DNA from: Candidatus Saccharimonadota bacterium
GTDB lineage: Bacteria; Patescibacteriota; Saccharimonadia; Saccharimonadales; Saccharimonadaceae
Reading direction: 5' to 3'
Length of the DNA stretch: 64,000 bases
Assembly (NCBI GenBank): GCA_017514665.1
Contig: JAFWIX010000005.1
Span: 26,991-90,990, forward strand
Both the position numbers and the translations under genes were made by a program. Positions 3,120-42,518 of this stretch are shown one piece after another. Each line of letters begins with the position of its first letter. The first letter of the stretch is position 1. Below the pieces are notes generated by a model that was not told the origin of the DNA, made no database searches, and worked only from the letters and a program-made list of their open reading frames with translations.

Positions 3120-4193
3120 ATGCGCGACTTGCAAAAACAAGCTGAAAACTTAAATGGCCAACTCAATGAACTTTGGCAAAAATTAAATCTTGACGAAAAA
3201 CTTGCTAAAATTACTAAACTAGAGGCCGAGGTTTCTGAGCCCGAAATTTGGACCAATCCTGAAAACGCCAAGAATAAAAACACCAAACTCGCCAAGCTTC
3301 AAGAAGAAACTCACGATTTTCTCATGCTCAAAACCCAACTTAACGATATCAACGAGCTTCTAGATCTCGAAAGCGCTAACTTAAAAACCGAAATCACCGA
3401 CCAGCTTGAAGCTATTGCCAAAAAACTTGAAGAGCTCAGCCAAACCCTCAAATTCACTGGCAAATACGACCACGGTGGCGCAATCTTGCGCATCACTTCT
3501 GGTGCTGGCGGTACCGAAGCTATGGATTGGGCTGGTATGCTCGAGCGTATGTATCTCAGGTTCTGCGAAAATCATCATTTCAAAGCCACTCAACTTGATC
3601 GCACCGTCGGTGAAGAGGCTGGTATCAAAACTGCCGTTTATGAAATCACCGGCCAAGATGCCTATGGCATGCTCAAGTCTGAACACGGCGTACATCGCCT
3701 GGTTCGCCTTAGCCCCTTCAATGCTAACAACCTTCGCCAAACTTCTTTTGCATTGGTAGAAGTCTTGCCCATCATTGATCAAGATACTGATTTTACTATT
3801 GATGAAAAAGATTTGCGCATTGATGTTTATCGCAGTGGCGGTCACGGCGGCCAGGGAGTTAACACTACCGATTCAGCGGTACGTATTACTCATATACCTA
3901 CCAACACTGTTGTTGCCATCCAAAACGAACGTTCCCAAATTCAAAACCGCGCTAAAGCCATGGAAGTTTTAAAAGGTAAGCTCATTCAAATGCAACAAGA
4001 GCAACATGCTCAGTCTATCGGCGAATTACGTGCTGGCGAATCCGCCGGTTGGGGCCAACAAATCCGCAATTACGTCCTTCAACCATATAAGTTAGTTAAG
4101 GATACCCGCACCAAATACGAAAGCAAAGACCCCGACGCCGTCCTTGATGGCAAGCTTGACGAGTTTGTTGACGCCTACTTGCGCTTATGCTAA
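3120..4193 (+). CDS. prfB: Peptide chain release factor 2
   Basis: [11 protein letters not shown] (GGQ), LVRLSPF (SPF anticodon mimic), WGQQIRNYVLQPY; continuous ORF. Confidence 0.97.
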   Translation: MRDLQKQAENLNGQLNELWQKLNLDEKLAKITKLEAEVSEPEIWTNPENAKNKNTKLAKLQEETHDFLMLKTQLNDINELLDLESANLKTEITDQLEAIAKKLEELSQTLKFTGKYDHGGAILRITSGAGGTEAMDWAGMLERMYLRFCENHHFKATQLDRTVGEEAGIKTAVYEITGQDAYGMLKSEHGVHRLVRLSPFNANNLRQTSFALVEVLPIIDQDTDFTIDEKDLRIDVYRSGGHGGQGVNTTDSAVRITHIPTNTVVAIQNERSQIQNRAKAMEVLKGKLIQMQQEQHAQSIGELRAGESAGWGQQIRNYVLQPYKLVKDTRTKYESKDPDAVLDGKLDEFVDAYLRLC

Positions 4194-37753: not shown

Positions 37754-39478
37754 TTGAGTAATAAAATCAGGGAAAGTTTAATAAGCGCAATGAAGGGCGT
37801 AGAAAATCTTATCCATAAAATCAGAAAAAATAAACTCGTATTGAGTATATTTGTAATTATTTGCGTATCTATAGCCGCCCTATCTCCACTTCTAGGGAAT
37901 AATAGCTATATTCATGGACATGACACGACATGGCATGTCCAAACAATTGACGCCATGTCTCAACTCAAAATTGGGGAATTACTGGACGTCCGTATGGTAG
38001 GAAAAATGATGAACGATCTCGGCTACCCAGTTGGTATATTTTATCCGCAATTTGCACATATAGTAGCAACTTTTATATACAAAATAACGTCACCGCTAGG
38101 CGCATCAGTTTATGCCGCCGCCAAAGCAACACACTTTCTCATCTTATGTTTATCTGGCATCTTTATGTATTTGCTTCTACTGAAACTAACCAAAAGCCAT
38201 AAAATTTCCTTAGTTGCAGCAATAATATACATGGTAATGCCATATCATCTTGTAGATATTTTAATTCGAGACACCTTTGGCGAAGAACTCCTTTTTGTTT
38301 TTCTGCCGCTTTTGGGTTTATCCTTTTACTATCTAGCGCACGAAAAATTTGGCTTATACTTGCCTCTTTTCGTAGTAGCCTGCTTTGGTTTAGTAAACTC
38401 ACATTTAGCACTAGCTATGTATATAGCAATCTTTGGTGTTATTTTTATCCTATTGAATTTTAAAACATTCATAAATCCGAAAAAAATTTCTTTCTTAATC
38501 GCCGGAGGAATTTTAGCAATATCCGTTTGCACGCCTTTTATCCTGCCAATACTAGAGCAACACAGTACATCGGAAATCGTCGCTCTGTCTACAGACTACT
38601 TAACTGCAAATCGAGAATATCGCGCACACATAAGTCCTTACGCGCTCCTATTTTACGACCAAAACGCCGAGGTCGGCATACCATTCTTTTTAAATATTGC
38701 AGCCATAGCAATTATAGTTTATGCTCATATTTTTGGTAGCTTAAAGAACAAACAGCGAAAACAATTTTTTGTATCTTTAAGTATTATCGGCCTCATAATT
38801 ATTTTTATGATAGTGGGTATTTTTGTTAAAATGGATAGTTATCCAGAAACTCTAAAAATGATCCAATTTTTCTGGCGACTCGAGGTGATTCTAATATTTA
38901 CTTTAAGTATTCAGGCGGCCATATCATTAAAAAGTATTAGTAGTGAAAAAATAAAGTCTGCGGCTATGTTTTCCATGTTGATATTAGCAGCATTTGGTGT
39001 TGAAATTACTCTTGAACATATGCTACCGATTGAAACACGCGCAATACAACAAGAGTATGAAGAACAATACAGGTTTAGGGAATATCTGCCAGTAAAAGCC
39101 TTTGAAAATTTTGAATATCTAAAAAATAAGACGGAAGACGTCGTCGTAAAAGAAGGGGCGGCGAACGTCTCGGACGTTGTGCGCAATACTCCTAATTTAG
39201 ATTTTAAAGTTGAGACTAAAAAGGGAACAACGCTTGAACTGCCCCTGCTATACTACATAGGTTACGAAATAAAAAGCCTCGACGCCAATGAGAGCAAAGA
39301 TGTCGAATACAAGGAGAGCGAAAATGGGTTTATCGAAATATTTGTTCCTCAAAATGCAAATATAAGGGTTCGTTATGTTGGCACTAATATCATGCATATA
39401 TCAAAGGTTATCTTTTTCGTAGGCTCAATCACAACAATTATTTGCACCATATTGTTGCAAAGAAAAAATGAGCACTAG
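37754..39478 (+). CDS. Polytopic GT-C-fold membrane protein ('PTPS-related'/YfhO-like glycosyltransferase)
   Basis: GHDTTWH loop, GYPVGIFYP, MPYHLVDILIRDTFGE, QFFWR; A-rich codon usage unlike neighbours; start uncertain (TTG 37754 or ATG 37790). Confidence 0.65.
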   Translation: MSNKIRESLISAMKGVENLIHKIRKNKLVLSIFVIICVSIAALSPLLGNNSYIHGHDTTWHVQTIDAMSQLKIGELLDVRMVGKMMNDLGYPVGIFYPQFAHIVATFIYKITSPLGASVYAAAKATHFLILCLSGIFMYLLLLKLTKSHKISLVAAIIYMVMPYHLVDILIRDTFGEELLFVFLPLLGLSFYYLAHEKFGLYLPLFVVACFGLVNSHLALAMYIAIFGVIFILLNFKTFINPKKISFLIAGGILAISVCTPFILPILEQHSTSEIVALSTDYLTANREYRAHISPYALLFYDQNAEVGIPFFLNIAAIAIIVYAHIFGSLKNKQRKQFFVSLSIIGLIIIFMIVGIFVKMDSYPETLKMIQFFWRLEVILIFTLSIQAAISLKSISSEKIKSAAMFSMLILAAFGVEITLEHMLPIETRAIQQEYEEQYRFREYLPVKAFENFEYLKNKTEDVVVKEGAANVSDVVRNTPNLDFKVETKKGTTLELPLLYYIGYEIKSLDANESKDVEYKESENGFIEIFVPQNANIRVRYVGTNIMHISKVIFFVGSITTIICTILLQRKNEH

Positions 39479-39513
39479 CCCTAGTAAAAGCATGATATAA
39501 TAATATCAATCAC

Positions 39514-39590
39514 GGTTCCTTAGCTCAGTTGGCTAGAGCGTACGATTCACATTCGTAAGGTCACAGGTTCGAGCCCTGTAGGAACCACCA
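39514..39590 (+). tRNA. tRNA-Val(CAC)
   Basis: GGTTCCT acceptor, anticodon loop TTCACAT, GTTCGAG, CCA. Confidence 0.97.
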
Positions 39591-39645
39591 AACGGTTTAT
39601 GAAATTATCTTCAACTATTTCGCAATCTATAAATGCCTGTTAAAT

Positions 39646-39672
39646 CCCTCGTTAAAATAGAGGGTTATTTTT
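39646..39672 (+). terminator. Probable terminator downstream of tRNA-Val
   Basis: CCCTC-N9-GAGGG followed by TTATTTTT. Confidence 0.5.
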
Positions 39673-39769
39673 ATGCCATTTTTGCGACAAAAACATGCCA
39701 AAAATCGTAATTTACCTCTATAATTTTATCTGTTAAATCCCCAATAATTTGGTCAAAATATTTACGCAT

Positions 39770-39795
39770 AAAAAATGCCGCCAGATGCTGGCGGC
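39770..39795 (-). terminator. Intrinsic terminator ending the minus-strand non-coding unit
   Basis: GCCGCCAG-CAT-CTGGCGGC-A-TTTTTT on the minus strand. Confidence 0.8.
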
Positions 39796-40323
39796 TGGGA
39801 ACCCTTTCGGGTAGTGAAAACAATATTTTATCTTTTTCCTATTTTTTTCCAGATTGAGCAGTACTACTCTGCAAAGCTCTTTTGCAATCTGAATGATTGT
39901 ATGGGCAAGTATAAAACATCTTCGCATTCTCTTCTGATGATATGATCATAGTCATACGTTCTTCCAAAAATGTTTTTTCACTTAAAGTACTACTACCGAC
40001 AAAGAATATGGCTAAAGCCACTAAAGATTCCTCTCGTTTTGCCAAGCATTCCCGCTTAGACGACTTCTAATATTTCCCGCTATGACGGGAGCAATAAGAA
40101 GTTGCACTCGTCTAACGAGCTACGGTTCAGCCTTAAGACTTGTTTTCTTTTCGACTACGCATAGATTTCAGGATTCCATCCGGCTATGCCGTACGATCAA
40201 CTGAGGTTATCGTATCGAGTTTCAATAATCAGTGCATGATTATCAGAAAACTTACCTTACAAACAAACGTATCAGAATCATTCTTAAGTTACGCGACTCT
40301 TCGTCTCCCATAACTCGGAGCAT
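39770..40323 (-). ncRNA. Candidate large (~555 nt) highly structured ncRNA
   Basis: Bounded by a consensus promoter and an intrinsic terminator; no credible long ORF; more than a dozen hand-identified helices including long-range pairs. Confidence 0.65.
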
Positions 40324-40329
40324 GCATTA

Positions 40330-40358
40330 ATTATAGCACACTTTGGCAAAAAAGTCAA
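40330..40358 (-). promoter_or_regulatory. Sigma70 promoter for the candidate ncRNA
   Basis: TTGACT-17 nt-TATAAT with extended TG. Confidence 0.8.
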
Positions 40359-40447
40359 TAGTTTTTATGCTTTTTCCGACAAACAGTCAAATATTCTCCC
40401 TATATTCTGTTAAAACCTGGTTAATTAACTCCCACCATTTTTTTAGT

Positions 40448-41596
40448 TCAGTTCAGATCGGATTCGCCATATTTTTTATAAAACTCCTTAATCATCGGGA
40501 TCTGATTAATATACTTGTCCATGCCCACATATTCGCCCACCAACCCCCTACGATCCTTGGCGTCCCCCCAATATCCCCCTCCCTTGCGACCGTCTTGGTA
40601 AGCCATACCAGGAATATGATACTCATACAATGGGGTGACTAATGAGCCAGGTTCTACAAATTCTTCTTTTACCCCTAAAGATGAGATCTTTACGTTTTGA
40701 CACTCAACTCCGCCCACCCAAGCTCGACCTTCATCGTTTTGAAAGATAAGATATTTTAAACTCCCATCCTGTGACAAAAAGCTACGCGCAATAACGTCCC
40801 CATAAATATCACTTTTAGTCCGCCAGCTATCAATACAATTATCAAAAACAGGGGATAAGTTTTCTGCAATCCGACATTCTGCCGGATCTGCGATTTCAGC
40901 ATACAATGCAACGTCGTGCCGTTCTTGGCTTTTATCTATATGTCCCGGAGTTAAACTATCATTCTCAAAACCAGCACGCTTGTGAACAAAACCCGATATG
41001 TCACCGCTTTCCGAAGTTGTCACCTTATAGTCCTTAACAAGCTTATTCAGCGCTCCTAATGGCACACCTTCAACCATCGGGTGTTCTAAAAGCACTCTCT
41101 CTATCGCCGACTGCAATTCAAATGGAGCATTAATTGCATTTTCACCATAATCAGATTTGCAATAATGACTATTGTTTAATTTTGGCAAGAATCGCCAAAG
41201 CATAGAAGAATTACTGCGATAAAATAGTCGTGGCTCAAATTTTTCTTCGTCCTCTGTTTTTACATAAATTACAAGGTGAGGGCGCTCTCCGCATTGCATA
41301 ATATCGGATAAATAGAGCTCCGCCCCATCAATTTTCCCAATCTCGTATTTTGGAGCCGCCTCCTCGGCAACATACTCTCTACCTATCTTACTATTAAAAT
41401 GCGTCTTTTGCAAAACTCCTTCTATTTCATCTTTAGATAATTCTTTATACTCGAACCTCTTATTCTCACTATTGTCCTGGCGCTCTGTTTTAAATTTCTC
41501 AAAATCAGTCGATGCCGCCCCCATAGACTCTAAATCATTCAGCTCTGTTTCGTTATAATTTGCAATACCTTCATAATTTGTTGAGATTTTTTCCAT
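40448..41596 (-). CDS. Hypothetical protein (382 aa)
   Basis: Long ORF with acidic N-terminus and LFYRSNSSMLWRFLP..HYCKS motif; family not recognised. Confidence 0.75.
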   Translation of the reverse strand: MEKISTNYEGIANYNETELNDLESMGAASTDFEKFKTERQDNSENKRFEYKELSKDEIEGVLQKTHFNSKIGREYVAEEAAPKYEIGKIDGAELYLSDIMQCGERPHLVIYVKTEDEEKFEPRLFYRSNSSMLWRFLPKLNNSHYCKSDYGENAINAPFELQSAIERVLLEHPMVEGVPLGALNKLVKDYKVTTSESGDISGFVHKRAGFENDSLTPGHIDKSQERHDVALYAEIADPAECRIAENLSPVFDNCIDSWRTKSDIYGDVIARSFLSQDGSLKYLIFQNDEGRAWVGGVECQNVKISSLGVKEEFVEPGSLVTPLYEYHIPGMAYQDGRKGGGYWGDAKDRRGLVGEYVGMDKYINQIPMIKEFYKKYGESDLN

Positions 41597-41656
41597 GTTG
41601 CATACCTATTTATTAATTCTCATATTAATGATAGCATATCCATAGAATATTCTAAT

Positions 41657-41684
41657 AAAAAATCCCGCCATTTGCATGACGGGA
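41657..41684 (-). terminator. Intrinsic terminator after the 157-aa gene
   Basis: TCCCGTCAT-GCAA-ATGGCGGGA followed by a T-run on the minus strand. Confidence 0.7.
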
Positions 41685-41692
41685 CATGAGGG

Positions 41693-42166
41693 TCACAGGA
41701 GCTTGATATAGTTTTCGTTAATCCAGACAATTCCGTCCGGATCGTCTTTTATTTTCTCTGGAAACCAGCTCTTTCCTTCAGCTGTATCTAGAATATCAGA
41801 CACCTTCAAGCCAATGTATTTTCCATTGGTATCCAGACTTTTATCCATAGTATACACCTTCGAAACTTCAAGAGTGAAGTTACACTCTTTGGTAGTTCCA
41901 AAAGAGTTGCTCTCAGGAGAAGCGGCTGCAGCGATTGGTTCCGAGCGTACGTTCGGACAGTCATCGATGATCTTTACGCAAGATGCATTGAGCACTGTCT
42001 TCTCGTACAGGTCGCCATAATCTCTGCTGATTTCATGGTTCGTGCACACGTATTTAATTGCACAACCAAATACAAACGCTGCTGCCAGGAACAGCAACGC
42101 AGCAATAACGATTGTAGCCATACCCTTCAGACCAGTACGCCTGAGGTAATTATCGATATTTTTCAT
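41693..42166 (-). CDS. Membrane-anchored protein with possible SH3b-like domain
   Basis: N-terminal TM; PNVRSEP ... VWINENYI resemble the first and last strands of SH3b. Confidence 0.6.
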   Translation of the reverse strand: MKNIDNYLRRTGLKGMATIVIAALLFLAAAFVFGCAIKYVCTNHEISRDYGDLYEKTVLNASCVKIIDDCPNVRSEPIAAAASPESNSFGTTKECNFTLEVSKVYTMDKSLDTNGKYIGLKVSDILDTAEGKSWFPEKIKDDPDGIVWINENYIKLL

Positions 42167-42296
42167 ACTATCACTCCCTTTCTGTTCCCATAACCCTATC
42201 TATATAAATGTACTAAATACAATATTTCTGATTGTCATATAATTATAGCACAAACGCTTTATTTTGTCAATACCTGCTTAGCTCACTCCACCAGAT

Positions 42297-42518
42297 TTAC
42301 TCTGAGATTTCAATTATTTTATGTTTAGAGGTTGCGCCCTTTACTATCTGTATTTTAGTCTTAGACACTCCAAAATGTTTCGCTAATAATTCAATCGTTG
42401 CTTTGTTAGCTTCGCCGTCATGAGCTTTTTTGCGGGTCCTGACAATCAATTCACCTTCACCAGCCCCTATTACTTCTTCTTTGAAACTCCTCGGTTTCAC
42501 CATTACATGGTAAATCAT
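42297..42518 (-). CDS. DUF167/YggU family protein
   Basis: VMVKPRS, AHDGEANKATIELLAKHFGV, GATSKHK. Confidence 0.85.
   Translation of the reverse strand: MIYHVMVKPRSFKEEVIGAGEGELIVRTRKKAHDGEANKATIELLAKHFGVSKTKIQIVKGATSKHKIIEISE

Follow-up and report, generated by a model that had tools for sequence, protein, structure and literature searches.

The DNA analysed here, called the window below, is a stretch of 64,000 nucleotides (nt) from a Candidatus Saccharimonadota bacterium (assembly GCA_017514665.1, contig JAFWIX010000005.1, positions 26,991 to 90,990), and all coordinates are counted from its first letter. Between a gene for tRNA-Val(CAC) on the plus strand and a gene for a protein of 382 amino acids (aa) on the minus strand, it carries a transcription unit of about 550 nt within which only short open reading frames (ORFs) are found (Table 1). 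This unit has its promoter and its terminator on the minus strand, and every copy has kept both. As set out below, the unit is very probably a genuine gene for a structured noncoding RNA (ncRNA) of a new family, and this RNA is abundant in the rumen of cow and sheep.

The transcription unit and its rumen transcript

The promoter of the RNA is the top promoter-like site across the 3 kb that were scanned, with 11 of 12 matches to TTGACT-17-TATAAT plus a TG extension, and the terminator stem (39795-39777) has 8 bp, seven of them G-C pairs, followed by a run of T. Both signals had been claimed in a sequence-only reading of this DNA, together with the absence of any convincing ORF between them, and all three claims were borne out, none of the short ORFs being conserved. 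The strings and coordinates given in that reading were also correct wherever they were re-read (CTTAAGA at 40288-40282, TCTTAAG at 40138-40132, GAATGATT at 40283-40276, AATCATTC at 39898-39891, AGTGAAAA at 39982-39975 and TTTTCACT at 39820-39813). The promoter core appears to be a strong promoter that is widely reused in Saccharibacteria, which explains its very high depth in metagenomes.

The RNA stretch is present in gut and rumen metagenomes, and more than 20 metatranscriptomes of cow and sheep rumen hold 34-53% of its 31-mers. Contigs from nine RNA runs, which belong to several studies, cover only about 39813-40311 at a contig depth of about 5-100, single contigs spanning 359-454 nt of the unit, and depth is zero on the 382-aa gene upstream and on the spacer downstream. 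Since contaminating DNA would cover these flanks too, the signal is RNA. The RNA accumulates far above the neighbouring mRNAs in cow and sheep rumen, and the transcript of about 550 nt that had been predicted exists within its predicted limits and is abundant. The metatranscriptome contigs are undirected; the strand of the transcript and its exact ends are taken from the sequence signals and the fold.

More distant relatives of the RNA were found in the cow and sheep rumen runs X25, X27 and X33, as contigs of 390, 483, 168 and 501 nt. They match just three islands (40098-40139, 39931-39977 and 39871-39902), whose spacing is unchanged, and the hairpin CCCGUCRUAGCGGG is common to them as well. 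In one divergent rumen variant the region 40172-40246, the apical part of the 5' domain described below, is swapped for other sequence.

Two further promoter-like sites lie close to the unit. The weaker box upstream of the promoter (Table 1) gave no sign of transcript coverage originating there in the rumen metatranscriptome contigs. A plus-strand site at 39695-39724 (ATGCCA-18-TATAAT, 10 of 12 matches) overlaps copy 2 of a repeated motif of the locus and points antisense into the RNA gene; in the same contigs no transcript coverage was seen over 39650-39811.

Conservation and predicted fold

Homologues were reached by three routes. An exact 20-mer scan of Joint Genome Institute (JGI) metagenomes returned two contigs (L001 and L002), a two-anchor pattern run over the GTDB species representatives returned four species (L019-L022), all close relatives, and a contig of the same species as the window (L014) was reached via the neighbouring 382-aa protein. 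All seven homologues belong to Candidatus Saccharibacteria of animal guts, those of L019-L022 being metagenome-assembled genomes, and the eight copies of the RNA are mutually 90-97% identical. All copies share invariant runs of 20-46 nt, and the stretch 40032-40177 is nearly invariant as well. Among the window, L001 and L021, identity is 90-93% for the RNA, 86-97% for the tRNA-Val and about 66% (nucleotides) or 71% (amino acids) for the release-factor gene prfA; judged by sequence identity, the RNA is thus more conserved than the adjacent tRNA and far more than prfA.

The RNA of the window (554 nt) has a minimum free energy (MFE) of -154.3 kcal/mol, lower than the -134.0 +/- 7.5 kcal/mol of its dinucleotide shuffles (z = -2.69), of which 2 in 100 folded equally well; the homologue in L021 reaches z = -5.48. 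The antisense strand, at -133.6 kcal/mol, gives z = -2.64, so that the energy of a single sequence does not decide the strand. About 66% of the bases are paired in the MFE fold, and the earlier statement that nearly the whole unit can pair was overstated.

RNAalifold, applied to seven full-length copies (alignment A3), predicted a consensus of 186 pairs at -149.3 kcal/mol with standard pairs in 98.8% of the cells. In eight pairs both partners had changed while remaining able to pair, compared with 0-2 when the 3' partners were slid by 1-3 columns, and none of 500 column shuffles reached the covariation score of the consensus fold. As the consensus structure came from the same alignment, the count was repeated with the MFE structure of the window alone, and again yielded eight compensatory pairs against 0-2 in the slid controls. 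The covarying homologues that the sequence-only reading called for therefore exist, and their compensatory changes argue that the structure itself is under selection. The homologues also bear on the strand: folded as a consensus, the antisense strand reaches -111.0 kcal/mol only, and 29 of the 44 variable pairs include a G-U state while 8 include an A-C state. Because a G-U pair would be a C-A mismatch on the opposite strand, these wobble changes favour the minus strand.

The compensatory changes are spread over the unit. Helix H21 (39920-39907 with 39834-39822) holds 3-4 of them, the hairpin at 40244-40224 is found in the states U-A, C-G and U-G, a G-C pair has become A-U in CGGC/GCCG, and C-G has become U-A in GUGGCU/AGCCAU as it has in the terminator. 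Additional variants from metatranscriptomes carry substitutions that mostly preserve pairs. Most of the local hairpins drawn in the sequence-only reading are compatible with the homologues, with two exceptions: TACGAT/ATCGTA is broken by substitutions in L019 and L021, and GCATAG/CTATGC is broken in L002 and L019, where CGGC-AUA-GCCG with its swap of G-C to A-U fits instead. Its 8-bp link over 385 nt, GAATGATT with AATCATTC, was contradicted too, by a change in L014 which breaks this pair and makes a U-G into a C-G in helix H23.

The 3' domain also contains an invariant perfect palindrome of 10 nt, UAUGAUCAUA, within an island common to the divergent rumen variants. From its sequence it is a possible site of self-pairing, i.e., a candidate for RNA-RNA dimerisation. 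The palindrome competes with the local hairpin H20.

Genomic context of the RNA

The RNA is the centre of a conserved module of about 0.85 kb that encodes no protein and consists of an upstream element, the promoter, the RNA, the terminator and a spacer, up to the CCACCA end of the tRNA. Similarity between loci starts at the same edge (40437-40419) in the window, L002, L019, L020 and L021. This edge begins with TGGTGGG, the complement of the CCACCA end of a tRNA, and is the sole TGGTGGGRG in the 64-kb window. A motif of about 25 nt (GGWTTTAACAG, 3-7 nt, TATAGRG) occurs three times in the window, all three at this locus, and is kept in L001, L002 and L019-L021; its copies could be protein-binding or recombination sites. 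Between copies 2 and 3 the spacer holds a hairpin which reads, on the plus strand, as the terminator of the tRNA itself.

Table 1. Features of the RNA locus, in coordinates of the window.
Feature	Position	Strand	Basis or remark
Cassette upstream edge TGGTGGGAGTTAATTAACC (module start TGGTGGGRGTTAATTARCC)	40419..40437	-	similarity between loci begins here
Motif copy 1, GGWTTTAACAG-N-TATAGRG	40399..40417	-	upstream of promoter
Weaker upstream promoter-like box, TTGACT-17-TAAAAA	40362..40390	-	kept in homologues
Sigma-70-type promoter, TTGACT-17-TGnTATAAT	40330..40358	-	promoter scan; kept in all 8 loci
RNA, about 549 nt	39775..40323	-	start inferred 7 nt past the -10 box; end is the U-tract of the terminator
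5' domain, consensus helices H1-H9	40116..40317	-	compensatory pairs 40242/40226 and CGGC/GCCG (about 40190/40182)
Central domain, H11-H16, most conserved core	39985..40109	-	H16 (40021-40008): C-G to U-A in L020
68-aa ORF inside RNA, not a gene	39839..40045	-	frameshifted in 4 of 7 homologues
3' domain, H18-H25, best supported	39814..39981	-	single sequence and alignment give identical predictions
Invariant 10-nt perfect palindrome UAUGAUCAUA	39941..39950	-	within island common to divergent rumen variants
CCC-GAAA-GGG hairpin	39802..39811	-	swapped in L002 for a nested stem-loop 41 nt longer
Intrinsic terminator, 8-bp stem and U-tract	39770..39795	-	terminator scan; C-G to U-A compensatory change in L014
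Conserved spacer, terminator to tRNA	39591..39769	-	77-81% identical between lineages with 66% identical prfA
Motif copies 2 and 3	39740-39717 and 39647-39626	-	in spacer between terminator and tRNA
tRNA-Val(CAC), convergent with RNA	39514..39590	+	Rfam 15 and ARAGORN

A convergent tRNA lies within about 250 nt downstream of the RNA in six of the seven complete loci (Val-CAC in three, Val-UAC, Gln-UUG and, in L019, a cut tRNA). The genes upstream differ at every locus and encode unknown proteins, L31, an L-PSP protein and a glycosyltransferase-like protein, which argues that the RNA gene is independent and has no conserved protein partner. None of the copies has an integrase, transposase or phage gene nearby, and the neighbouring proteins had no PHROG match. 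The RNA gave no blastn match in 50,697 phage records and no similarity to plasmid records, and three scans of IMG/VR for exact patterns returned nothing.

Nearly all Saccharibacteria loci that were fetched have the tRNA-Val/prfA neighbourhood, and the RNA occupies the slot 3' of tRNA-Val only in the window, L001 and L021, the slot being empty in L030, L034 and L036/37. In the closer relatives L004-L007, whose prfA is 86% identical, pth and prfA are separated by the tRNA alone, with no RNA. Synteny walks from prfA (P0004, P0008, P0023, P0113, P0079, P0122, P0124, P0126, P0130 and P0172) led to the tRNA-Val/prfA pair without the RNA or to a contig break at the tRNA, and nhmmer --max found nothing in these loci. 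A 1.3-kb gap beside the tRNA of L027 was considered as a divergent copy of the RNA and rejected: it encodes a predicted membrane protein of 112 aa which the same type of promoter (TATTGACTTTTT...TGTGCTATAATTAA) drives beside tRNA-Val (L027, 9370-9829).

The scattered carriers, the conserved untranscribed flanks (77-81%) and the differing tRNA partners together suggest that the module spread horizontally among co-resident gut Saccharibacteria. That its flanks and peripheral helices vary around an invariant core points to purifying selection on the RNA layered on top of this spread.

Several observations concern the edges of the module. In DNA metagenomes, spacer depth is 15-fold that of the RNA body; more broadly, depth over the flanks 39585-39750 and 40315-40430 is 15-30 times that over the RNA body and the neighbouring genes, and the contigs of these flanks include many variants, some of which run into unrelated sequence. 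Consequently, the flanks must be present in a far larger number of genomes or sites than the RNA. Metagenome contigs contain joints which skip the RNA (39727 to 40408 and 39754 to 40403) and others which are tandem-like (40431 to 39585 and 39751 to 39585). In L002 (about 3830-3850) a 20-nt fragment from the 3' end of its tRNA-Val(UAC) is duplicated at the module edge, and in L020 (about 3610-3640) a fragment without tRNA is followed by a second upstream element ahead of a deformylase-like gene. The same-species contig L014 is 99.6% identical to the window from 43999 to 39761 and diverges exactly past the RNA terminator (L014, 5839 onward), where tRNA-Gln(UUG) and a 980-aa gene of no known family replace tRNA-Val, the DUF6541 gene and prfA; the contig reflects either a rearrangement in that strain or a chimeric assembly across a repeat.

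In the window, the interval between pth and prfA (37754-42518, about 4.8 kb) holds genes for a DUF6541 membrane protein, tRNA-Val, the RNA, the 382-aa protein, a 157-aa protein and a DUF167-like protein, and gene orientation in it differs between the window and L004-L007. The genes for the 382-aa (40448-41596) and 157-aa (41693-42166) proteins lie on the minus strand; these proteins had no match in Pfam, PHROG or NCBIfam and occur in no other version of the locus than that of this species.

Such a context raises the possibility that the cassette is a small non-autonomous mobile element, moved either through natural transformation, of which Saccharibacteria are capable, or by an integrase that works in trans at tRNA 3' ends. 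The RNA would then serve the element (in maintenance, exclusion, defence or counter-defence) and not the housekeeping of the host. This explanation, which we consider possible and hold only tentatively, agrees with the one that we prefer on what the RNA is and differs from it on why the RNA is there. It would account for the 77-93% identity of RNA and spacer between lineages with 66% identity in prfA, for the phylogenetic scatter of the carriers and the empty slot of closer relatives, for the different tRNAs (Val-CAC, Val-UAC and Gln-UUG) which the RNA adjoins, for the CCACCA-type ends and the duplicated tRNA fragment of L002, for the RNA-skipping joints, which link motif copy to motif copy in contigs of metagenome X1, and for the exact point at which L014 diverges. 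However, an integrase, transposase or phage gene was absent near all copies examined, no circular or excised form has been demonstrated, the joints rest on anchors of 26-30 nt in A/T-rich repeats where mis-joins are possible, and the flank motifs could be regulatory and not recombination sites. With integrative elements that target tRNA genes and with their protein-less (CIME-like) derivatives the cassette shares its position against tRNA 3' ends, CCACCA-type repeats at its borders, a tRNA 3' fragment duplicated at one locus and a presence/absence pattern, but it measures 0.85 kb only, lacks a nearby integrase and has a single RNA gene as its cargo.

Alternative explanations and the proposed role of the RNA

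Whether the structure could be incidental was considered for a long regulatory RNA, acting in trans as an antisense RNA or sponge, or in cis as a leader or antisense of its neighbours. Its own promoter, its high expression and the plus-strand promoter-like site which points into the unit would suit such an RNA. Yet its complementarity to the tRNAs of the window is no better than that of shuffles, the genes upstream are never the same from locus to locus, and the compensatory changes show that the structure itself is selected, which makes this explanation improbable. As for the cis-acting form, transcription stops at the terminator, short of the convergent tRNA, which means that the RNA cannot be, and is not, a leader of the neighbouring gene.

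Membership in a known class of large bacterial RNA was also weighed. ROOL (Rfam RF03087), described by Weinberg et al. in 2017, averages 581 nt, was first seen in cow rumen, is abundant and lies next to tRNA genes (PMC5737381, PMC12286853), and was reported from three phyla (PMC5737381). ROOL and GOLLD are non-essential where tested and assemble into RNA-only cages (PMC5737381, PMC12286853), the ROOL nanocage having been resolved by cryo-electron microscopy (PMC12286853). The RNA of the window resembles ROOL in its size, its rumen habitat and its adjoining tRNA genes (PMC5737381, PMC12286853); like ROOL it stands alone, is very abundant and apparently accessory or non-essential, has no conserved protein partner and is predicted to fold into several domains. 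A divergent ROOL, GOLLD or OLE member that the covariance models missed is nonetheless very improbable. Rfam 15 at gathering scores found three tRNAs only in the window, and tRNAs only in the seven homologous loci at gathering thresholds, and a search at E<=10 with permissive filters on 1201 nt and on 566 nt returned nothing relevant (ROOL, GOLLD, OLE, transfer-messenger RNA (tmRNA), RNase P, 6S or signal recognition particle (SRP) RNA). ROOL is often found in phages or prophages, a context not found here, and has few highly conserved nucleotides, whereas sequence conservation here is much higher; the structure predicted for the present RNA is a nested one. The host, a Patescibacteria member of the candidate phyla radiation (CPR), also lies outside the three phyla reported for ROOL and differs from the described hosts. 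Of the two possibilities that the sequence-only reading had left side by side, a divergent member of these classes thus found no support and a new class did.

The other large RNAs differ as well. GOLLD shares the proximity to tRNA genes and a conserved core joined to a more variable part, but typically exceeds 800 nt, has a conserved 3' region and is associated with phages, while the RNA described here has about 549 nt and does not match its model. OLE is similar in being about 600 nt long, abundant, highly conserved in sequence and restricted to a lineage, but it is vertically inherited in extremophilic Firmicutes beside oapA, oapB and oapC, and neither such neighbours nor a model match were found here. 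The raiA motif RNA is abundant and structured with its own promoter and terminator; it is, however, about 200 nt long, occurs in Firmicutes and Actinobacteria and gave no model match either. Our search of the literature found no description of such an RNA in Saccharibacteria. As no known RNA family matches, the RNA makes a good candidate for a new large bacterial RNA class and is best regarded as a new family among the large abundant bacterial ncRNAs, one that resembles ROOL and GOLLD and fails those tests of membership which could be run.

That the transcript is an mRNA for a small protein of 38-68 aa, encoded by the ORF at 39839-40045, has still less to recommend it. The last 38-42 codons of this ORF are open in all seven homologues and the gene caller of one assembly called a 64-aa gene here. 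Against this, the N-terminal part of the 68-aa frame is broken by frameshifts in L002, L019, L020 and L021. In the open part, the variable sites fall 4, 7 and 5 times on codon positions 1, 2 and 3, with no excess at the third position, and the changes are mostly non-synonymous and coincide with compensatory RNA pairs. The ORF has no Pfam match, a chimeric six-frame translation found no relatives in a set of 5.8 billion proteins, and the ORF makes up less than 40% of the transcript, the most conserved part of which lies upstream of it. ORF conservation, which the sequence-only reading had named as a possible refutation, accordingly failed to appear, as did the three other outcomes it had named (a missing transcript, a folding energy not better than that of shuffles, and a lack of covarying homologues), and the pattern of changes indicates that the RNA is not translated.

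A disguised housekeeping RNA (tmRNA, RNase P, 6S or SRP) of a fast-evolving CPR lineage, to which abundance and strong conservation would be natural, is the least probable of all: Rfam had no match, ARAGORN found three tRNAs and no tmRNA, inspection by eye against the features of these families revealed no tRNA-like end pairing of the tmRNA type, no tag-like ORF in the three sense frames and no P4-type motif, an exact two-anchor pattern, with which every known copy agrees, picked up the close clade in only four of the GTDB species representatives, and the tRNA-Val slot is empty in other lineages.

The best explanation overall, and a probable one, remains that of a stand-alone gene for an abundant, structured ncRNA of about 550 nt from an undescribed family. 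The unit has the promoter, the terminator, the matching transcript and the compensatory pairs of an independent sigma-70 ncRNA unit, the strand being assigned by inference, and it has the stand-alone length (about 549 nt) and the convergent tRNA of a ROOL-type RNA, for which the Rfam model match and the phage or prophage context are missing. The RNA would fold around an almost invariant core of about 150 nt into three domains, with a long-range helix closing each of them; it would act in trans, with its function residing in the fold. It would be accessory, not a universal housekeeping RNA, and carried on the protein-less cassette that abuts tRNA 3' ends.

As to its mode of action, the RNA may be a high-copy architectural RNA, a scaffold or self-assembling particle that would engage or enclose a conserved cellular partner. 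By analogy with ROOL and GOLLD, such a role is the likeliest one on offer, though in itself doubtful; it is favoured because the RNA appears accessory, has no dedicated protein gene and shares with ROOL and GOLLD its abundance and its association with tRNA genes. The palindrome UAUGAUCAUA and the self-complementary loops (GUAC and UGCA) would allow self-pairing. Going further, one may imagine a mobile cassette beside tRNA 3' ends whose cargo is an RNA-only homo-oligomeric particle, nucleated by the palindrome and unrelated in fold to the ROOL and GOLLD nanocages, a combination which we regard as unlikely.

A number of points weigh against the preferred explanation or narrow it. The full-length sequences compared are only seven, are 90-97% identical and fall into two or three clades, so that the compensatory events are few and not independent. 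The untranscribed flanks of the cassette are conserved too (77-81%), and part of the conservation of the RNA may therefore reflect recent horizontal spread and not selection on the RNA. The folding signal of the single sequence is modest and that of its antisense is similar, the single-sequence and consensus predictions disagree on how the 5' and central domains fold, and the evidence for the fold is, in sum, real but thin. The RNA contigs carry no direction, and the strand of the transcript is the one that the sequence signals and the fold indicate. The absence of the RNA elsewhere applies to the tRNA-Val/prfA slot only and not to whole genomes, and there is no conserved neighbouring protein or partner, oligomerisation and binding being proposed by analogy.

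Only a handful of large bacterial ncRNAs are known (OLE, GOLLD, ROOL, raiA and HEARO), and these have recently been found to form unexpected RNA-only assemblies. To our knowledge, none is known from the CPR, whose genomes are tiny and leave little room for dispensable sequence. The RNA described here would thus be the first large abundant ncRNA of its kind from this radiation, with the unusual addition that a protein-less cassette at tRNA 3' ends apparently carries it. Such a cassette-like placement is relevant to the association, as yet unexplained, of large RNAs with tRNA loci, and an RNA abundant enough to assemble in many independent rumen metatranscriptomes is an accessible target. If it does form an RNA-only particle carried on a cassette, it would be a CPR counterpart of the nanocages and the first CPR-specific class of large 'ornate' RNA.

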